Part shown: positions 54,482 to 62,426 of the stretch, piece by piece
Position numbering within the stretch: position 1 is the first letter of the stretch
Layout: each line of letters starts with the position of its first letter
Source: an uncultured Candidatus Saccharibacteria bacterium
GTDB taxonomy: Bacteria > Patescibacteriota > Minisyncoccia > Phycocordibacterales > UBA9973
DNA: 64,000 nucleotides
Direction of reading: 5' to 3'
NCBI GenBank assembly: GCA_964522195.1
Contig: CAZFSV010000002.1
Span: forward strand, 36,743 to 100,742
The notes under the pieces: model-generated
Told to the model about the DNA's origin: nothing
Database searches by the model: none
Seen by the model: only the letters and a program-made list of their open reading frames with translations
Program-made: the position numbers and the translations under genes

Positions 54482-55072
54482 CTACGTGTTATTTTTATAA
54501 TATTTATTTTTAAATTTATCAAATAAATTTGTTAAATCATTTTCAATTTCAATTTTGCAAACAAAACAATCTTTTAACTTGGGTGTAATACCTTTTTTAA
54601 GAACACTTAGCGAAAGATCAAATTTATATTCACTTGTATGAACTCCATTTACTATTCTTTTAGTTAATTTTTCCCAATTTATATCTTGTTTTCTTGCAAT
54701 AAGGACATATAAATCATTTGGCGTAAAATCAAGAAAAATAAAAGCATCGTAATTTCTATTTTTAAAAAATTTTTCATGCTGAAATGTATCAGCCGACGCA
54801 CCTATTGTGGCTGTTTTAACTTCAATCTTTATGTCATCTACAACAATATCCCAATATTTATCATTATTAGTTATTGCTTTTTCATATTCAACTTTATATC
54901 TTCTTTTTGTAAAAATTTCATTTAAAAGCAACTCTCCCACTTCCCCAGTGTCATCATTATTTAATTTTTTTATATTCTCATATTTACCACCTTTTGCCCA
55001 ATTATTTTTCTTTTGTTTTCTATTTTCAGGAAGTGATATTAATATATTTTTTATAATTTCTTCTATTTTCAT
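54482..55072 (-). CDS. Putative type II restriction endonuclease (PD-(D/E)xK fold)
   Basis: WDIVVDDIKIEVKTA gives a D...(D/E)xK catalytic pattern. Immediately downstream of, and co-oriented with, a DNA MTase (4-nt gap). Confidence 0.5.
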   Translation of the reverse strand: MKIEEIIKNILISLPENRKQKKNNWAKGGKYENIKKLNNDDTGEVGELLLNEIFTKRRYKVEYEKAITNNDKYWDIVVDDIKIEVKTATIGASADTFQHEKFFKNRNYDAFIFLDFTPNDLYVLIARKQDINWEKLTKRIVNGVHTSEYKFDLSLSVLKKGITPKLKDCFVCKIEIENDLTNLFDKFKNKYYKNNT

Positions 55073-55075
55073 ATT

Positions 55076-56161
55076 TTAAAATAATTTATGATTAAAATCA
55101 TAGTAACCATTTTTAATTAAAACATCTTCAATTAAACTTGTACGTAAGTTTATTGCAGAGTTACTTGAATAAAAAGCTGTTTTTTCCCAATCATGATTTA
55201 ATAATAAATTCTTAATTTTTTCTTTATCTTTTAATATTACAATTCCATATCCTCTACGTTGAGGTAATTCTTCAAAAGAAAGGTATGGTTTTATGTCTTT
55301 ATAGGTTGTAGATGGCAAATAAATATCACATTTATAAAGCATATTTTTATTTCTTGTATTAGAAGGCAATCCTCCATCTGATAAAGAATAAATTTTTATA
55401 TACTGTAAACATGTTTTTCTTTCAGGGATCTTAATATTTTCTGTTTTTATTTTGGTCCACACTTGAAATATAGTATGAATTTTAATTTCCTCACCACTTG
55501 GATATATAAAAGAATTAGGAGGAATAATTTCTGAATATGCTAACTTGTAACCAAAAACTCTTTTTTTAGGAGATCCTTTACCGTCACTATTAAATAGTTG
55601 TGGCAATATAAAAGCAACAACATCAGCAAATTTGTAAGAATGATTAATGAATTGTAAAGCTAAATGACCTCTTAAGCCAAATGGAGGATTTCCCACAACA
55701 AAATATTTAAGATTTTTAGATGGAATCCATTTTAAATAATCATCTTTAATAATAGTTTTTGCTTTTGGGTCTATGTCTATGCCTATAGAGTTTTCTGGTA
55801 AAAATTTCAAAAAACTACCATTTCCAGCTGAAGGTTCAATATAAACATAATCTTTATCATCTATACCTAAATCAGTAATAATTTTTTTAAATTTTTTAAT
55901 ACAACCTAATGCAATATTTTCTTTAGTATAATATTGATCTTTTTCTTTTATAGAAAAATTATCTTCATATTTTACATTTAATAATCTTAAAAAATCTAAT
56001 TGATAATTTTTAGGTACTTTGTTTTGTTGGACCCATCTTTTTACAGTTCCTTTATGTATGCCAAAATGATTTGCTAATCTATCAAGAGTAAAAACATTTA
56101 AAGATTGCTCAAATAGCTGATTAATTTCAAAATTATTTATATTTGTGTTTGTATTTTTCAT
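55076..56161 (-). CDS. N6-adenine DNA methyltransferase, gamma class (M.TaqI-like), with N-terminal HTH extension
   Basis: Motif X DQYYT, motif I EPSAGNGSF, IGIDIDP, motif IV NPPF in M.TaqI order. N-terminal FTLDRLANHFGIHKGTVKRWV HTH. C-terminal target-recognition region. Confidence 0.75.
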   Translation of the reverse strand: MKNTNTNINNFEINQLFEQSLNVFTLDRLANHFGIHKGTVKRWVQQNKVPKNYQLDFLRLLNVKYEDNFSIKEKDQYYTKENIALGCIKKFKKIITDLGIDDKDYVYIEPSAGNGSFLKFLPENSIGIDIDPKAKTIIKDDYLKWIPSKNLKYFVVGNPPFGLRGHLALQFINHSYKFADVVAFILPQLFNSDGKGSPKKRVFGYKLAYSEIIPPNSFIYPSGEEIKIHTIFQVWTKIKTENIKIPERKTCLQYIKIYSLSDGGLPSNTRNKNMLYKCDIYLPSTTYKDIKPYLSFEELPQRRGYGIVILKDKEKIKNLLLNHDWEKTAFYSSNSAINLRTSLIEDVLIKNGYYDFNHKLF

Positions 56162-56329
56162 TTATTTTTTATAAATAAGTAATTAAATTGTCTCATACTT
56201 TTAAGTTTTTTACAATTAAGATTTTAATTAATTATTTATTATATGCAATATATGCTATAAAATCCTATTCCACAGGACAGGTAGTTTTCCCTATTGCGGC
56301 GTAGAAGCCACACCATGAGAATAATGCTA

Positions 56330-56344
56330 CACCCCCACACCAAA
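56330..56344. repeat. Left 15-bp inverted repeat ACCCCCACACCAAAT flanking GIY-YIG ORF (coordinates +/-2)
   Basis: Perfect reverse-complement match to 56605-56619. Confidence 0.7.
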
Positions 56345-56599
56345 TTATTGTACACTATTTTCAATCCTTTTTCTTAATTGCGTAAAAGCTCGACTTCTTA
56401 ACTTTAAATTTGATTCTCTATGTCTTGCATCTTTCTCTGCTTTGTATGCTTCGTAATATACTAACTCAAGAGGTCGTCGAGCTTTTGTGGAAATAACTTT
56501 ACCATCGTTATGTTCTTTAAAACGTTTCCTTAGATCATTTGTTGACCCAGTATAAAATTGATTATCTTTTTTACTTTTTAGAATATAAATGTAAAACAT
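56345..56599 (-). CDS. GIY-YIG nuclease family protein (UPF0213-like, 84 aa)
   Basis: FYIYIL...YTGSTNDLRKRFKEH...E GIY-YIG core. The ORF sits exactly between two 15-bp perfect inverted repeats. Confidence 0.8.
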   Translation of the reverse strand: MFYIYILKSKKDNQFYTGSTNDLRKRFKEHNDGKVISTKARRPLELVYYEAYKAEKDARHRESNLKLRSRAFTQLRKRIENSVQ

Positions 56600-56894
56600 A
56601 ACTTATTTGGTGTGGGGGTAAAAATATTGCGAATCCGGAGAAGAATAAGAGTATTGGGCTCCAGGTTGTGGTTATTGCCCAGACTAATAACCCTACTCCT
56701 ATCAAGAGTCTCAATAGGCGGTCGCCTTTACCTATATTTTTACTACCGCGTCCTTCTTTTCCGACTATTGCATTCTTTGCTAATTTTTTTAGAATTGCTC
56801 GATATAAGAGTCCAAAAATCCCCGCAAGGAGATACATGGCGACGACGAGTCCCCAACCTGTTGTAAAAGTATTTATCATACTTGTATTATACAC
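56571..56894 (-). CDS. Small membrane protein, DUF2892/YgaP-like N-terminal motif
   Basis: NIGKGDRLLRLLIGVGLL resembles the DUF2892 start. Two or three TM helices. GC-enriched DNA leaves both strands open (spurious plus-strand ORFs). The 3' end overlaps the GIY-YIG start and runs through the inverted repeat. Confidence 0.4.
   Translation of the reverse strand: MYNTSMINTFTTGWGLVVAMYLLAGIFGLLYRAILKKLAKNAIVGKEGRGSKNIGKGDRLLRLLIGVGLLVWAITTTWSPILLFFSGFAIFLPPHQISYVLHLYSKK
56605..56619. repeat. Right 15-bp inverted repeat (reverse complement of ACCCCCACACCAAAT)
   Basis: 5 nt upstream of the GIY-YIG ATG on the minus strand. Confidence 0.7.
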
Positions 56895-56914
56895 TGAATC
56901 AAAGTATTAATCTT

Positions 56915-56941
56915 CTTGCGTTAGGTCTTGCCTAACGCAAG
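56915..56941. repeat. Palindromic 27-nt hairpin element copy 1 (cttgcgttagg-tcttg-cctaacgcaag)
   Basis: 11-bp perfect stem. Identical second copy at 57453-57479. Confidence 0.7.
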
Positions 56942-56955
56942 GGTTTAAATAATGT

Positions 56956-56984
56956 TTGACAAATTTAACTTAATATGATATGAT
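56956..56984 (+). promoter_or_regulatory. Candidate promoter TTGACA-17-TATGAT
   Basis: Perfect -35 consensus, 17-nt spacer. Lies just inside hairpin copy 1 and upstream of the small ORF. Confidence 0.4.
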
Positions 56985-57024
56985 ACTGATTGAGGATAAT
57001 GTTGTTCTCAAAAAATTTTATATT

Positions 57025-57264
57025 ATGCCAGCAGAATTATCAGCAGCAAGGGCGAATGAAATCGCCATGATTGTCTTACAAGACAAACTTGAAAATGATG
57101 GTGAATTATCTAGAGTAGTTCCCTCTGAAATCAAGAGACAGGTTCATAATGCGTCAAAAAAAATGGGCATTCCCCCAAAAGAGATTGCCGAATTCATGAA
57201 GCTAATGCTTCAAAAGATGCATACAAAAAACATTGCGGAGCTCGATAAGATAATTGGCTCCTAA
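57025..57264 (+). CDS. Small helical hypothetical protein (79 aa) in GC-enriched cassette
   Basis: ORF with its own promoter and terminator. About 40% GC versus about 29% background. No recognised domain. The ORF track's upstream Met (56980) would overlap the -10 box. Confidence 0.35.
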   Translation: MPAELSAARANEIAMIVLQDKLENDGELSRVVPSEIKRQVHNASKKMGIPPKEIAEFMKLMLQKMHTKNIAELDKIIGS

Positions 57265-57400
57265 ATCAATTCTTTCAGTCAAGGTTGAAGAGTATTCTTC
57301 ACTAAAGGGATAATTCCGATTTGTTATTAGTCGATCTGCTTTGCTGATCTATGCAAGATAAATCTAAGAGAATAAGAACCTAACCTCACTGAAAAAATTT

Positions 57401-57436
57401 GCCCCGTCGCCTAAAAACGACGGGGCTTTTTATTTT
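57401..57436 (+). terminator. Intrinsic terminator (gccccgtcg-cctaaaaa-cgacggggc plus T-run)
   Basis: 9-bp GC-rich stem followed by tttttattttt. Confidence 0.65.
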
Positions 57437-57452
57437 TCCTGTTACGTTAAAT

Positions 57453-57479
57453 CTTGCGTTAGGTCTTGCCTAACGCAAG
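57453..57479. repeat. Palindromic 27-nt hairpin element copy 2
   Basis: Identical to 56915-56941. Sits 3 nt downstream of the stop of minus-strand gene 57483-57911. Confidence 0.7.
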
Positions 57480-57482
57480 ACT

Positions 57483-57911
57483 TTATCTAAAACTACAAGT
57501 TAGTACACATTGCAACGTGCAGATTTGTGCGTCTTTGTCGTGTCTACATGCGGAGGCGCATCCATTCCATTCTCCACCTTTCGCTATACATTGATTTTCA
57601 CTAAAAGAATTAATCTCGCAGACTTTACTCTCTTCATACCAAGTACCTTTTTGAGACTCACAAGATAATTTTTTGTTATCTGGAGCTAGGGTGATTTTAT
57701 CGTTCTCTTTTTGTGGAGGAATATTTTCTGGTTTTATAATTTCTGGAGTTTGAATCTGATTATTATTTTCAGGAATTAAAATATTACTATCTAGTTCATT
57801 TGCTGAATAATCTTGTAATTTAGAATCAGAATTCTTAGCTACATTCAAAGCATAATATCCTCCTCCGACAAATATAATTCCTACCAAAACCCATATTGCT
57901 ATTTTTGACAT
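57483..57911 (-). CDS. Secreted/anchored cysteine-rich protein (10 Cys in C-terminal 60 aa)
   Basis: N-terminal signal-anchor, Pro/Asn/Glu-rich linker, Cys-rich C-terminal module. Confidence 0.45.
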   Translation of the reverse strand: MSKIAIWVLVGIIFVGGGYYALNVAKNSDSKLQDYSANELDSNILIPENNNQIQTPEIIKPENIPPQKENDKITLAPDNKKLSCESQKGTWYEESKVCEINSFSENQCIAKGGEWNGCASACRHDKDAQICTLQCVLTCSFR

Positions 57912-57942
57912 ATATTTTAATTTAATTAATTAATTTTTTAAT

Positions 57943-57963
57943 AATTTAGATTTATCAAAATAT
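57943..57963 (-). promoter_or_regulatory. Shared 21-nt upstream motif AATTTAGATTTATCAAAATAT, copy 1
   Basis: Identical 21-mer at 59840-59860, also upstream of a minus-strand gene. Confidence 0.35.
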
Positions 57964-58059
57964 TTTTCATAATTATTTTTTAAGATACTTAAATTATACC
58001 ATTCTATATTTGATTAATACAGCCGTACAAATACTTGAGTTTTTGTTATAATAAAAATT

Positions 58060-58974
58060 ATGATAAATGCATTTATGGTTTTGCTTCCAGTATTCGGTAT
58101 CATAGCTTTCGGCTATCTTCTGCATAGATATGATATTGTCAAAATAAAATTAGTTCATATATTAAACCTTTTTATCTATTATGTTTCATTACCAGCTCTG
58201 ATTATTAGTTTATTTTGGAATATAGAATTCACTAAGAGCACTCTCGGATTCTTCGGCTTTCATGCAGGACTCATAATTGTACTGAGTTTGATACTAATGC
58301 TAACACTCTCAATATTTAAAATAAATAGTAAAAACAAAATCGCTATAATGCTCGGGGTCATGGTCGGAAATACTGTGTATATGGGCTACCCAATACTAGG
58401 TGCTACTTACCCTGATTTCCCTATTGAAGTCGGTATTGGTGCGGGAGCTATACAACTAATCACTGGTTTGCTAATGGCAGTGTTATTCGTAGAATATATG
58501 ATACTGCGAACAAAGAAACTATCTACATACATACTAGACTTGGCTCGGAATCCGCTCGTTATCGCTTGTATATTGGGTGTGATACTAAGTTTGATACCAC
58601 ACAGTGAAGCTATGAATGCCGGATTTAAAGTTGTATCAGCCTTAGGACAAACAGCAAGTCCACTCGCTTTACTGACACTTGGATTCTTTATGAATAGACA
58701 TATCTCAAAAAAGAGTATCATGCTGGGAAGTATAGCAGTGATGGCGAAGCTCGTAATATTACCTATGGCGGTGTTCATTATATCTATACTGCTCGGTTAT
58801 AGCCGAGAGTTTATACAAGTATCAGTACTGATATCAGCAATGCCTACAGCGGTTACGAGTTTTATTCTCGCAGAGAAATATAACCTAGACGAAAATCTAT
58901 CCGCAGACATAATACTCGCAAGTACCATCTTCTCAATAATAAGCATACCTATTGTGGTGTGGTTGCTCGGATAA
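58060..58974 (+). CDS. AEC-family (auxin efflux carrier / malate permease-like) transporter
   Basis: 10-TM two-repeat topology. N-terminal LLPVFGIIAFGYLL typical of Mem_trans family. Confidence 0.65.
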   Translation: MINAFMVLLPVFGIIAFGYLLHRYDIVKIKLVHILNLFIYYVSLPALIISLFWNIEFTKSTLGFFGFHAGLIIVLSLILMLTLSIFKINSKNKIAIMLGVMVGNTVYMGYPILGATYPDFPIEVGIGAGAIQLITGLLMAVLFVEYMILRTKKLSTYILDLARNPLVIACILGVILSLIPHSEAMNAGFKVVSALGQTASPLALLTLGFFMNRHISKKSIMLGSIAVMAKLVILPMAVFIISILLGYSREFIQVSVLISAMPTAVTSFILAEKYNLDENLSADIILASTIFSIISIPIVVWLLG

Positions 58975-59004
58975 ATACTATTAGTCGTGAATGATATATA
59001 AAAA

Positions 59005-59030
59005 TAAAAAAGCCCCTACTTTTAGGGGCC
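59005..59030 (-). terminator. Terminator for minus-strand gene 59074-59754 (gcccct-loop-aggggc with T-run on minus strand)
   Basis: U-tract present only on the minus strand. Confidence 0.5.
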
Positions 59031-59073
59031 TTGCCTTACGGCAACTAAATGAAAAGTCAATAAAATAATTGGT

Positions 59074-59754
59074 CTAATTTTTTAAGTTTTCAGGTCTTCC
59101 AACCTTGCGAACTTTTCTTGTTTTTGCTTTTGGAATAGGAATTGGTTTACCAGATTCTTCAAAAGCCTTTTGATTTTTCTTTTTATAAGAAACTGTATTT
59201 TTTCTCCTTATTCCTAGAAATTTTTTATCTTCTTCAGATAAGCCATAATCCCAAGAAAGAAAAGTTGGTTTTGAATGCTTTTCAGAATTTATACAAATCC
59301 AGAAATATTGACGAGTTCCTTTTTTACGGTGAATTTCCATTTCGCGTTCACATTTTTTACAAGGACAAAGCGGAGTGTTGTCAATTTTTTGTTTTGTGAT
59401 GCGAGCATATTCTTTCATGTCTACAAAAAAATTTTTGTTTTTTCTTGTGAAATATTGAGTACAATAAATCAAAATATCTCCTTTTGTTAAAATAACCCAT
59501 CCAGCATCAGTCCCTTTATCTCGGAGCTTGTTTTCTTTTTCAAGAAAAGTAGACCAAATTTTCTCAGTATAGGTTCCATTAGAATATTGAAAACCTGTTT
59601 CGTATCCTTGGATTCTTCGAATTCTTTTTTCAAGATCAAGTCTTGTAAAATCTTTATGAATTTGTTTTGATCCAATTTTATGAAAACCCAAAGCTTTCAT
59701 TTCAAGAGCAAACCACTCAAACCCTTCAGGGGTAGGAGTACCATTAACTTCCAT
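59074..59754 (-). CDS. Hypothetical nuclease-like protein with topoisomerase-type zinc ribbon and basic tail
   Basis: CPCKKC...FWIC...EKH four-Cys ribbon similar to zf-C4_Topoisom. Upstream DAGWVILTKGDILIYCTQY segment is reminiscent of NERD/Mrr-type cores. K/R-rich C-terminus. Confidence 0.3.
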   Translation of the reverse strand: MEVNGTPTPEGFEWFALEMKALGFHKIGSKQIHKDFTRLDLEKRIRRIQGYETGFQYSNGTYTEKIWSTFLEKENKLRDKGTDAGWVILTKGDILIYCTQYFTRKNKNFFVDMKEYARITKQKIDNTPLCPCKKCEREMEIHRKKGTRQYFWICINSEKHSKPTFLSWDYGLSEEDKKFLGIRRKNTVSYKKKNQKAFEESGKPIPIPKAKTRKVRKVGRPENLKN

Positions 59755-59839
59755 GATTATTGATTTTTAATGTGAGGAACTATTTTTTTATATCAAAAAT
59801 AATCCTACAATAAAAATAGAATTTTAGCAATATTTTATG

Positions 59840-59860
59840 AATTTAGATTTATCAAAATAT
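59840..59860 (-). promoter_or_regulatory. Shared 21-nt upstream motif, copy 2
   Basis: Identical to 57943-57963. About 85-105 nt upstream of start 59754. Confidence 0.35.
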
Positions 59861-59870
59861 GTTAATAATT

Positions 59871-60725
59871 CTAATAAAACTCTCTCCTGATTTCTTTAGA
59901 ATAATTCGGGACGTCGCCTATTTCTTCTGAAATATCATTCACATAATATTTAAGTCTTGCTTCTTCTATCGATAAATCTGTATCAAGTAAACCTTTCTCT
60001 AGTGCCAACTCATCCGCTGAAGCTGTGAGCCAGAGTTCCCAAGAGAACGGCGAAATACGGTTGGGACTGAGATTATTCACATGCTTGGCAATCATAGAAG
60101 TACAGTTAGAGAAAAAAGTATTATACCATTCAGGCTCCACTATTAATTTATTCATCTTGTTTAACATGTCGACGAGGAGCAGTCGTCCGTTCTCGGGTTT
60201 CTCAAGCTTTATAGGATAGACATAAACTTTATCTTTACGAACGTTAGCACGGAGGAGTATCGTATCTCTCTCGTCCGCGGCGACGTAGATGAGCGGATAA
60301 GTCCGGAGCATACCTTCCCAAATACTATATACTTGATCCTTGGTTTTCAAAGCTTCAATACTAATAGACAAGAAATCTCCATTTTCAAATTCAAAAGATA
60401 CAAAAGTATGCGCCGCTAAATCATTTTCATTAAAAGGTTCAGATATAAACCAAACTTTTTTCACTCCGTTTAGATCATAAGTCTTGTCATAATAGCCCGG
60501 TATCATATCTTTCTCTGTTGGGACATATCTAAAATTACGTACATTCTTCACCGTGACTGAGCCCCCATCTTCCGAGAATTCTGCAGTCGAAGGTATAGCA
60601 AGTTGAGTCTGCCAATCTCCTTCTGTTAGTGGACGCACCGTCATATAATAAATCACATATCCAATAATAAAAATCAATAATAAAAGTCCTAATTTTTTGA
60701 AAAAATTCTTATTTAAAAATTTCAT
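59871..60725 (-). CDS. DUF4105-like (Lnb N-terminal domain-like) membrane-anchored protein
   Basis: N-terminal TM. HTFVSFEF and FFSNCTSM motifs are reminiscent of DUF4105. Assignment from memory of family signatures. Confidence 0.35.
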   Translation of the reverse strand: MKFLNKNFFKKLGLLLLIFIIGYVIYYMTVRPLTEGDWQTQLAIPSTAEFSEDGGSVTVKNVRNFRYVPTEKDMIPGYYDKTYDLNGVKKVWFISEPFNENDLAAHTFVSFEFENGDFLSISIEALKTKDQVYSIWEGMLRTYPLIYVAADERDTILLRANVRKDKVYVYPIKLEKPENGRLLLVDMLNKMNKLIVEPEWYNTFFSNCTSMIAKHVNNLSPNRISPFSWELWLTASADELALEKGLLDTDLSIEEARLKYYVNDISEEIGDVPNYSKEIRREFY

Positions 60726-60786
60726 ATATTTATTGTATCAACATTCTCTTTAATAACAAATTCTAATTTATGATATAATTTTTAAT

Positions 60787-61371
60787 ATGAAAATATTATA
60801 TAGCATAATGATTTTGGTTTTTTTATTTAGTACTAATATAGCTTCAGCAGATTCAATTAACTTGCCCTGTGTTTCATCGCCAGGAGTTGAGTGCCCTCCT
60901 AGTAATGGTAATAGAATAAATCCAAGATGGGATAATCAAACTTTAACATTCACCGAACAATTACAAGACCCGGTAAAATTTTTATTTTTTGTAATTCCAA
61001 TAGCCCTAATAATCATCATTTCTTTTTTAATTTATTTTAAAAATAAAAAAGAAAAAACTCTCAACATTGAAAGAATTAAATTAAGTATCTGGAATCAATT
61101 ATTTTTTCTAATCATAGCTTTAATCGGCTATGCAATTTCTGTTATTTTTAGCACTCTCATTTTTGATAATAATGGTTATTATAATTATTATGATAGATAT
61201 AACAATTACCAAATAATTAAATTAATATCTGTATTTACTTATCCGGTGGCTTCTATTTTAATAGCTCATTACATAACTCTATTTTTAAGACAAAAGGTTC
61301 ATTATATTATTACAACCATCATTTTAATAATTATTGCAGTAATTGGATATTTTACCTTGACTGGTTTTTAA
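60787..61371 (+). CDS. Hypothetical membrane protein (signal peptide plus 4 TM)
   Basis: Hydrophobicity pattern only. Extended -10 (TGATATAAT) about 10 nt upstream. Confidence 0.35.
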   Translation: MKILYSIMILVFLFSTNIASADSINLPCVSSPGVECPPSNGNRINPRWDNQTLTFTEQLQDPVKFLFFVIPIALIIIISFLIYFKNKKEKTLNIERIKLSIWNQLFFLIIALIGYAISVIFSTLIFDNNGYYNYYDRYNNYQIIKLISVFTYPVASILIAHYITLFLRQKVHYIITTIILIIIAVIGYFTLTGF

Positions 61372-61922
61372 TAAAGTCTTATATCCTTCATGCGTCTTTT
61401 ATAGTCTGGAATTTGCAGACTTACTAAATTCCAGAATCGAGATGAATGATTCATCTCTTTTAAATGAGCTAATTCGTGCACTATGATATAGTCTCGTAAA
61501 TCCGGAGGTAAGAAAAATATTTTATAATTAAAAGACAGCTCGCCGGAGCTCGAACAACTCCCCCATCTAGTTTTCTGATTCCGGATCTTGATACTTTTAA
61601 TTTTAAAATTATAGAATTGATTGAAATAGAGGCATCTTTCGAGAGCTATGTCAGAGGCATCTTGCTTGTAAAGTTTATAATCCTTCACACTAAAGTGCGA
61701 CAAGATCTTCTTTGGTCTTTTTTTTAAATTCTCTATCTGCTCCAATATCCAATCCTTTTTCGTCTCTACAACACGCTCAATATACAAGTCTGAAATATTC
61801 CTAGGCTTGGTAACGACTACAGATAAATCCGGCAAGATGCTAATGCGAATACCTCTTATACCTTTGCGGATTTTTATCGTATAAGTAATAACTATCTTAT
61901 CTTTTATAATTTTTTGATTCAT
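61368..61922 (-). CDS. DUF45/YgjP-family metal-dependent hydrolase (M48/WLM-like)
   Basis: RWGSCSSSGELSFN...YIIVHELAHLKEMNHSSRFW matches the DUF45 HExxH core. Confidence 0.75.
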   Translation of the reverse strand: MNQKIIKDKIVITYTIKIRKGIRGIRISILPDLSVVVTKPRNISDLYIERVVETKKDWILEQIENLKKRPKKILSHFSVKDYKLYKQDASDIALERCLYFNQFYNFKIKSIKIRNQKTRWGSCSSSGELSFNYKIFFLPPDLRDYIIVHELAHLKEMNHSSRFWNLVSLQIPDYKRRMKDIRLY

Positions 61923-62034
61923 ATATAAAACTTAATCTTTAAAGTATAATATACATACTAAATATTGACAAAGCTCACTAAATATATTATCTTAAACAAG
62001 AAAATTCTTTCAATAACCTTAAAAAAAATAAAAA

Positions 62035-62391
62035 ATGGTTTTAAAAATGGATGAATATAAGATTAAATTATTAAATCTTAATTTAATATTAATAAACCAT
62101 GAGCCAGATAGTCCAATATATAAATTAAGTTTGTATATTATAGATTATTTACATGAAAAACATGATCCTCTAGGTTTTCTAGAAGCTGTTTGTGAAAGTC
62201 TCGAAGATTTATATTTAGGAGAAAATAAATTTACTGGAGAAAAAGTCGTTAATCATTTAACTGGTTTTCATGAAAGTTTTTATCAAAAACTTTTAAAAGA
62301 AGAAATTCCCGAGATAGTAACTACAATTTTCCCAGAAAATTTTTCTGAAGAAATTAAAAATCAAATTAAAAAAATTTTTAATGAAAAGTAA
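62035..62391 (+). CDS. Hypothetical acidic cytoplasmic protein
   Basis: ORF only. No motif recognised. Confidence 0.3.
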   Translation: MVLKMDEYKIKLLNLNLILINHEPDSPIYKLSLYIIDYLHEKHDPLGFLEAVCESLEDLYLGENKFTGEKVVNHLTGFHESFYQKLLKEEIPEIVTTIFPENFSEEIKNQIKKIFNEK

Positions 62392-62395
62392 AACA

Positions 62396-62426
62396 AAAAT
62401 TAGTCATAAAAATGACTAATTTTTTA
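62396..62426. terminator. Bidirectional terminator (ttagtcat-aaaa-atgactaa)
   Basis: 8-bp stem flanked by A and T runs, between convergent 62035 ORF and murG. Confidence 0.55.

Follow-up and report, generated by a model that had tools for sequence, protein, structure and literature searches.

Within a stretch of 64,000 nucleotides from an uncultured Candidatus Saccharibacteria bacterium (contig CAZFSV010000002.1 of assembly GCA_964522195.1), referred to here as the window, a very small gene for a GIY-YIG nuclease is enclosed by a perfect inverted repeat and interrupts the gene for a YgaP-like membrane protein. The open reading frame (ORF) is intact, lies on the minus strand at 56345..56599 and encodes an 84-aa protein of a single-domain nuclease family. 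The repeat consists of ACCCCCACACCAAAT at 56331-56345 on the plus strand and its exact reverse complement at 56605-56619; it is perfect over 15 bp, and the perfect match does not extend past them. Read on the gene strand, the upstream arm is ACCCCCACACCAAAT (56605..56619, minus strand) and ends 5 nt ahead of the ATG at 56597-56599, and the downstream arm is ATTTGGTGTGGGGGT (56331..56345, minus strand), the first base of which, being the last base of the left arm on the plus strand, is also the last base of the stop codon (56345-56347). The element core, as delimited throughout the family described below, runs from a C-run to a G-run (CCCCC…GGGGG; 287 bp, 56332..56618) and is flanked on the gene strand by the tetranucleotides TTTA on the 5' side (56619..56622, minus strand) and TGTA on the 3' side (56328..56331, minus strand). 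These stand where other members of the family carry a target-site duplication, of which the window has an imperfect copy, and empty sites have a single TGAA there. Written as a mini-hairpin, the unit reads TTTA-CCCCCACACCAAAT-loop-ATTTGGTGTGGGGG-TGTA, with the GIY-YIG gene as its sole ORF and only 34 non-coding nt. This layout of ORF and arms had been described in the original prediction, which was made from the letters alone, and it was reproduced here.

A 15-mer of this kind could have been a common repeat without any connection to the gene. It occurs in the window only as the two arms, with no third match at up to 2 mismatches, and two matches arose in none of 100 dinucleotide-preserving shuffles of the window; the 10-nt core CCCCCACACC, with 1 mismatch allowed, likewise has no further copy in the window beyond the two arms. 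When the unit is folded as single-stranded DNA (ssDNA), the 15-bp terminal stem is kept in both the minimum free energy and the centroid structures (z = -3.1). The GC enrichment that had been claimed for this DNA holds only slightly, as the unit itself lies at ~0.29-0.34 compared with 0.298 for the window, and most of the effect belongs to the neighboring host gene (0.41-0.43). A second inverted repeat is found inside the ORF (AAAAGCTCGAC at 56374-56394 and GTCGAGCTTTT at 56476-56496, with an 11-bp perfect core); the closest relatives keep it with double compensatory changes (11/11 in L016, 10/11 in L020), and it is not present in distant relatives (mean 4.7/11). Scans of the locus for tRNA genes and Rfam families, at gathering and E-value thresholds, returned no RNA gene or intron, and an Rfam match to rliI at E=0.44 was weak and was taken as chance.

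The 84-aa protein matches the Pfam GIY-YIG family PF01541 over profile positions 1-74 of 78 (E=2.8e-17), as the original prediction had it, and all of the residues that are invariant in its family (Y3, Y5, Y16, G18, R26, H30, N31 and E62) are in place. The ORF is an intact predicted nuclease under apparent purifying selection, with a dN/dS of ~0.12 against a relative of 94% identity. Its close relatives number more than 700 (73-94% identity), nearly all of exactly 84 aa, and none was found in the viral contigs of IMG/VR, where they would have pointed to carriage by phage. The nearest solved structure by sequence is that of the UPF0213 protein BH0048 (PDB 1zg2), which is reached with E=2e-10 by the profile of the window family. 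At one related locus (L023, 1864-2190) a second, larger GIY-YIG gene (~45% identical) stands in tandem and is preceded by the variant arm TTTTACCCCCGCACC.

The unit is an insertion that splits the YgaP-like/DUF2892 gene. The 5' part of the gene (MINTF…SGFAIF; 56623..56879, minus strand) runs into the element and meets a stop at 56571, 17 codons inside it, and the 3' part (VALFSWCGFYAAIGKTTCPVE*; 56265..56330, minus strand) follows on the other side in the same frame. The truncated ORF (56571..56894, minus strand), which passes through the right arm as had been noticed before, matches PF11127 (YgaP-like_TM / DUF2892) only at profile positions 3-41 of 66; with the two halves joined, the match covers positions 3-65 of 66 (E=6e-12). 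A search with the joined protein recovered two uninterrupted orthologues, P0121 (93% aa identity) and P0122 (83% aa identity), both exactly 107 aa in length, together with P0126, which is the window's own truncated product. The DNA of intact orthologues reads …GGATTCGCAATATTT GAA GC(C/A) TTATTC… (…SGFAIFEALFSW…), the empty-site sequence of the uninterrupted allele being …GCAATATTTGAAGCATTATTC…, and the window junctions read …GCAATATT-TTTA-[CCCCC…287 bp…GGGGG]-TGTA-GCATTATTC. BLAST alignments of intact loci to the window break at 56622 and resume at 56331, two points that are contiguous in the uninterrupted loci L095, L096 and L221, and the net gain of the window over the empty site is 291 nt. 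Both L096 and the window have murG upstream, so the loci are orthologous and syntenic. The proposal that a mobile unit had entered the 3' part of the membrane-protein gene is thus borne out by the rebuilt PF11127 match, by the empty sites, by orthologues that break at the arm boundaries and by the presence of the unit at unrelated loci. Relative to the intact L095 orthologue, the 3' fragment carries 5 synonymous codon changes and a sole amino-acid change, E to V at the junction, and with so few changes the insertion looks recent. The same insertion is found in L011, where the GIY-YIG protein is 94% identical and the host gene has, besides, lost its 5' third, therefore the host gene is not rescued there.

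Units of the same construction occur well beyond the window. A family scan in which each species was represented by one genome found 510 loci that encode such a protein, in several phyla, from which 80 were fetched and 78 distinct loci analyzed; the fetched loci are mostly from Patescibacteria, and others come from metagenome-assembled genomes labelled Elusimicrobia, Saganbacteria, Omnitrophota, Cloacimonadota and Planctomycetes. When a bracketing repeat is counted at a score of at least 10, the ORF is bracketed by a repeat with the common core CCCCACAC…GTGTGGGG in 59 of the 78 distinct loci, so that the repeat/ORF/repeat unit looked for in other genomes does recur, and the termini CCCCCACAC…GTGTGGGGG are present in 59/78 units and in all of the ORF-less forms described below. 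Between the end of the upstream arm and the ATG there are 0-20 nt, the repeat covering the ATG itself in some relatives, and the stop codon usually lies within or against the downstream arm. The genomic contexts are unrelated, being downstream of a serine hydrolase in L001, inside another conserved gene in L021/L023, and in the loop of a CCCCGGGG hairpin in L016/L019/L020. This last hairpin belongs to a conserved, non-coding-looking sequence of ~200 nt (L001 1781-2001 and the flanks of L016, L019 and L020), which is 72-95% identical by segment on contigs labelled Sungiibacteriota, Saccharibacteria and, in one case, unlabelled, with the GIY-YIG unit in the loop in three of them. One candidate multi-copy element, P0031, was set aside as its 25 contigs all represent one locus in different samples.

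The two arms evolve together. In 37 full-length units anchored at the C-run, 14 stem positions pair in ~100% of the units and 7 vary, always on both sides, with changes such as CG to GC, UA or AU, and AU to UA or CG; a pair of the G-U type fills only 1 of 518 stem cells. The covariation score is 0.351, compared with 0.139 in shuffles (0 of 500 reached the observed value) and at most 0.097 in slid registers. As the pairing is strictly Watson-Crick without wobble, it points to a constraint acting at the level of DNA, likely paired ssDNA or two ends read by one protein, rather than to an RNA helix.

Besides the window, filled and empty sites of full-length units can be compared between L021/L023 and L080 and between L016/L019/L020 and L001, and in all three pairs, including the window, the net gain equals the core plus 4 nt. 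Exact junction models were tried on these pairs (a simple 4-bp duplication, a cohesive-end exchange and an IS608-like asymmetric target), and none fits the three without one assumed substitution. In a flank set of 78 copies, made up of full-length units together with the ORF-less copies found at their loci, an exact 4-nt repeat is present in 24 compared with 5.1 expected, and the outer two positions agree in 58 and 63 of the copies and the inner two in 37 and 45. Across the two sides, positions 1 and 4 of the 4-mers next to the core complement each other (T…A or C…G) and the middle two are free, which is the pattern expected from symmetric staggered cutting. At full-length units the flanks may have been blurred by recombination or homing between alleles.

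A record of insertion is also carried by copies with no ORF. At the GIY-YIG loci the common termini also surround short bodies, either as hairpins (26-62 bp in, e.g., L017, L019, L026, L028, L045 and L090, and 24-62 bp over all ORF-less hairpins) or as forms of ~100-140 bp that resemble miniature inverted-repeat transposable elements (MITEs; L020, L040, L046, L072, L084 and L062), and L062 holds two homologous MITE-like copies in inverted orientation. A metagenome scan with the pattern CCCCCACACC-N(0-30)-GGTGTGGGGG returned at least 120 stretches. Outside the C-run and G-run an exact 4-bp direct repeat is present in 52 of 122 hairpins, compared with 7.0 expected and a maximum of 17 in 5000 shuffles, and the duplications have the form YNNR (TAAA, TTTA, TTGA, TCAA, TATA, TGAA, CAAG, CTTG and CGAG). 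Target duplication is proved by three clean pairs of filled and empty hairpin sites: L178 (3814-3842) reads TAAA-core-TAAA where L019 and L214 have a single TAAA, L214 (3775-3803) has TAAA duplicated with L178 as its empty site, and L217 (248-276) has TTTA duplicated with L154 (CTTA) as its empty site. L178 and L214 are related contigs, each with an insertion that the other is without, and these reciprocal insertions indicate recent activity. The duplication anticipated for a mobile unit is therefore seen in the family, and the copy in the window is imperfect (TTTA/TGTA, with TGAA as the target). In presence/absence polymorphism, in common termini at unrelated sites and in a duplication of fixed length, the family shows what transposable elements show. 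At L090, the resident unit and a nearby ORF-less copy have a rare arm variant, CCCGCACACTT, in common; sharing of arm variants within loci reached a nominal p of 0.009, which is confounded by nested pairs with a common arm, and L090 is the only convincing case. No transposase was found beside the units or in the larger arm-bounded segments, which hold ordinary genes or a restriction-modification module instead.

Short hairpin copies may also become part of other genes. Open frames of at least 500 nt run across 16 of 98 such copies, and the added length is a multiple of 3 nt in 12 of these 16; translation of the copies in frame (e.g. L183 8125-8153, L208 3759-3787 and L155 774-805) would yield …PHT(K/S)x(n)GVGV… peptides. 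In L192 (10496-12857), a restriction-modification module consisting of an N6_N4 methylase and a MutH/Sau3AI-like nuclease has a complete short hairpin of the CCCCCACACC family on each side, a layout that recalls the NTS repeats around genes of Neisseria.

The known proteins nearest to this arrangement are those of the Ssn family (cd10448), which are single-domain GIY-YIG enzymes of ~94 aa (Chenal et al. 2025, Nat Commun 16:2388, PMC11893778). Ssn enzymes bind the NTS/SRM hairpin repeat in ssDNA and cut just 5' of the hairpin, a site-specific cleavage that does not extend to dsDNA or RNA, and the NTS repeat is found on both sides of the ssn gene and in hundreds of copies (PMC11893778). The authors of that study noted that NTS-ssnA-NTS looks like an insertion sequence and suggested domestication, with no mobility shown, and read the Neisseria Ssn/NTS system as a host function modulating transformation and not as a transposase (PMC11893778). 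For comparison, an Ssn set was retrieved with a family consensus and then verified by repeat layout and by the SRM pattern; in the Planktothrix control (L097), GTCATTCCCGCGAAGGCGGGAATCC lies 13 nt before the ATG and its reverse complement 12 nt after the stop, and the SRM pattern matches. Alignment of the window family to the verified Ssn set with hhalign gave a probability of 98.7% (E=3e-16; 40% identity over 70 columns), and hmmsearch gave 42 bits, the conserved C-terminal ~25 residues of Ssn being absent from the window family. The Ssn profile reaches UPF0213 BH0048 more weakly (E=4e-4), and the PDB holds no structure of Ssn. The SRM pattern HGTCWYN(0-2)YYVSBRHN(0-5)WNVSBRGN(0-2)RNCYNB, which matched the L097 control, had 0 matches in the whole window. 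By these profile comparisons the window family is related to Ssn, probably as a sister family, with an Ssn-like layout from which the defining SRM repeat is missing.

The interpretation favored here, with reasonable but far from complete confidence, is that the unit is a miniature mobile element, probably autonomous, from a palindrome-bounded family that occurs chiefly in uncultured bacteria resembling Patescibacteria. As DNA, the element would be a hairpin with the arms as its stem (the outer CCCCCACAC/GTGTGGGGG conserved, the inner part variable but complementary) and the GIY-YIG gene in its loop. It would have landed in the YgaP-like gene in that gene's own orientation, destroying it, and would be expressed by read-through of host transcription, on which it likely depends as there is no room for a promoter of its own. 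By analogy with Ssn, the GIY-YIG protein itself is the putative cutting enzyme, which may recognize the stem formed by the arms in single-stranded or cruciform DNA and cut each strand a fixed few nt outside it, and which may cut YNNR targets with a 4-nt stagger; the cut positions and the single-stranded substrate are likewise proposed by this analogy. Host repair and ligation would then finish the move by filling and sealing, leaving the 4-bp duplication. Hairpins and MITE-like forms with no ORF would arise from such units by internal deletion and would be mobilized in trans. The hairpin-bounded family is large and apparently undescribed. A bolder proposal, offered only tentatively, is that these units may be the smallest class of autonomous prokaryotic transposon yet seen (~290 bp), with an 84-aa GIY-YIG nuclease as the only 'transposase', recognizing its own stem, making 4-nt staggered cuts at YNNR and seeding translatable hairpin MITEs.

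Several observations weigh against an autonomous element of this kind. The window holds a single copy, with neither a second GIY-YIG gene nor a solo hairpin in its 64 kb, and no promoter or Shine-Dalgarno sequence of the unit's own was found in it. The flanks TTTA and TGTA in place of the TGAA of the empty site mean that a clean duplication is absent from the window copy, and among full-length units an exact 4-nt flanking repeat is present in only ~10 of 48, compared with 43% of hairpins; full-length units may have another way of moving or being exchanged, such as recombination or homing. Among the matches listed, a GIY-YIG gene lies within the fetched stretch in only 7 of 120 hairpin loci. 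GIY-YIG enzymes also hydrolyze DNA and form no covalent intermediates, therefore host factors would have to do the joining.

The excess of hairpins over GIY-YIG genes among the matches listed, together with the fewer clean duplications at full-length units, would suit an explanation in which the hairpins are moved by another enzyme, HUH/RAYT-like or DDE, and the GIY-YIG gene is a passenger or guardian, either cargo or a domesticated Ssn-like factor for restriction or regulation of ssDNA. The Ssn/NTS system of Neisseria is itself interpreted as a host function (PMC11893778), and the two hairpins in L192 flank a restriction-modification module much as NTS repeats flank genes. A passenger gene is nevertheless considered unlikely, though not to be dismissed lightly, as no transposase is present in the larger arm-bounded segments or adjoining the units, the ORF fits from arm to arm in those 59 of 78 loci in very different genomes, the empty sites are without the whole unit, arms plus ORF, and in L090 the resident unit and the nearby ORF-less copy have the same rare variant. 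A free-standing homing endonuclease, which would cut the uninterrupted YgaP-like allele and be copied in by recombinational repair with the repeats merely incidental, would explain why one insertion site is occupied in two lineages, the window and L011. Between these two, dS is 0.60 in the host-gene flanks and 0.20 in the element (Fisher p=0.016), and nucleotide identity is 77-85% in the flanks and 95% in the element; because the element is less diverged than its flanks, the comparison suggests that the unit reached the YgaP-like site, or was exchanged there, after the two hosts split. Co-conversion would also fit the window site, which has no clean duplication and an adjacent codon changed from GAA to GTA. 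As an account of the family, however, homing is improbable: its members are spread over many unrelated sites, both within genes and between them, the arms show conservation as well as covariation, the ORF-less copies with 4-bp duplications are not a homing product, and no relatives were found in the viral contigs. Homing may serve as a secondary route between alleles, and the many unrelated sites and the duplications show transposition to be the main mode of the family.

An explanation at the level of RNA, which the original prediction had kept as its second alternative, is hardly credible in light of these data. The arms would pair in the transcript as a 15-bp panhandle beside the start codon, or over the ATG in some relatives, where they could regulate or stabilize the GIY-YIG mRNA, and the net insert of 291 nt is a multiple of 3, as an intron-like segment restoring the host mRNA could be. 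The near absence of G-U pairs from the covarying arms and the identical arms that bound ORF-less elements with duplications argue against a panhandle; Rfam finds no intron or other RNA family, the host frame meets its stop 17 codons into the element, and the host gene of L011 has also lost its 5' part. A group I or group II intron or an intein was likewise rejected, given the lack of an Rfam match, the mere 34 non-coding nt, an ORF that does not share the frame of the host gene, and the stop in the host frame.

If these units are indeed a transposon class with the GIY-YIG nuclease as the only 'transposase', the Ssn/NTS systems in Neisseria, Wolbachia and others would be domesticated descendants of such elements. 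The sister family provides evidence that goes beyond the Ssn study in the form of empty sites, 4-bp duplications, non-autonomous derivatives and recent insertions that differ between related genomes; the locus thereby makes it testable whether hairpin nucleases of the Ssn type are enzymes of mobile elements and how families of hairpin repeats originate. In practical terms, the putative nuclease and its recognition hairpin form a compact pair with many natural specificity variants that may be of use for ssDNA tools. In the reduced genomes of uncultured bacteria, the family is a source of gene disruption and of in-frame peptide insertion.

The surroundings of the split gene also vary. Between murG and the YgaP-like gene, which are adjacent in L096, the window has ~5.5 kb of genes (56900-62420), and the neighborhood is rearranged or expanded between the two. 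The short spacer that separates the YgaP-like gene from the divergent gene at 56980, which encodes 94 aa, contains a perfect hairpin of 11 bp with a loop of 5 nt (CTTGCGTTAGG…CCTAACGCAAG; 56915-56941). Very AT-rich DNA (54482-56161, minus strand; GC 0.15-0.29) directly downstream of the split gene encodes two proteins, one of 361 aa with a methyltransferase-type motif, VVGNPPFG, and one of 196 aa; the corresponding position has Eco57I-family and Tsp45I-family genes in L011, a type III methylase in L221, and in L096 a different gene of 439 aa with no Pfam match on record. It may be that restriction-modification modules have a hot spot just downstream of the YgaP-like gene. A deletion of 1 nt, located 7 nt upstream of the insertion point (GC-ATTCTTGAAG vs GCAATATTTGAAG), shifts the frame of one YgaP-like allele, P0147 (L221, ~850-860), which was seen on 23 contigs; since the TGAA of this allele is intact and the deletion is 7 nt off, the deletion is no clear footprint of excision.

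In comparing the family to known systems, the closest likeness is to Ssn. Both have a small single-domain GIY-YIG protein encoded between a repeat and its reverse complement, and in both the repeat, built of a conserved outer part plus a paired stem, is also present in many ORF-less copies. The window protein is shorter (84 aa versus ~94-95) and is without the C-terminal segment KKWxRxWKIxLIExxNPxWxDLY, and its repeat is of the CCCCCACAC type and not SRM. The flank of an ssn gene is a complete hairpin, whereas each flank in the window family is half of one CCCCCACACC-type palindrome with the gene in its loop; for NTS-ssnA-NTS mobility has only been hypothesized, whereas insertion polymorphism and 4-bp duplications are seen in the window family. 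Literature searches on a described GIY-YIG-encoding, repeat-bounded bacterial transposable element and on the arm sequence turned up no paper besides that on Ssn. The earlier claim that no class of this kind had been described thus holds for a mobile GIY-YIG element, none having been found, and does not hold for the layout, since GIY-YIG genes between inverted NTS hairpins had already been described for Ssn (PMC11893778).

The REP/RAYT systems (REPtrons) and the IS200/IS605 family resemble the units in having a small nuclease gene between inverted short palindromic repeats that are also dispersed without the gene, and DNA hairpins are the presumed substrate in each case. They differ in enzyme, which is an HUH/Y1 transposase in those systems and a predicted hydrolytic GIY-YIG nuclease in the window family, and in outcome, as REPs and IS200/IS605 leave no target duplication whereas the window family leaves 4 bp; the RAYT gene, moreover, lies between two hairpins and the window-family gene inside one. 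To our knowledge, no prokaryotic insertion-sequence family uses a GIY-YIG nuclease. MITEs such as Correia/NEMIS of Neisseria and the Rickettsia palindromic elements have similarly short inverted repeats, small target duplications and positions in or next to genes, and the Rickettsia elements are further matched by the window-family hairpins that lie in frame inside long ORFs (12 of the 16 spanned by an ORF adding a multiple of 3). These MITEs have no coding capacity, and any transposases presumed for them are of other types, whereas the window family has a coding version of ~290 bp. The GIY-YIG catalytic domain itself is held in common with homing endonucleases (I-TevI, T4 Seg) and with UPF0213 proteins, and a selfish-gene lifestyle like that of homing endonucleases is plausible for the window unit. 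Unlike homing endonucleases, the window protein has no DNA-binding extension and no association with introns or phages, and unlike them its family has terminal repeats and target duplications; UPF0213 proteins have no known repeats.

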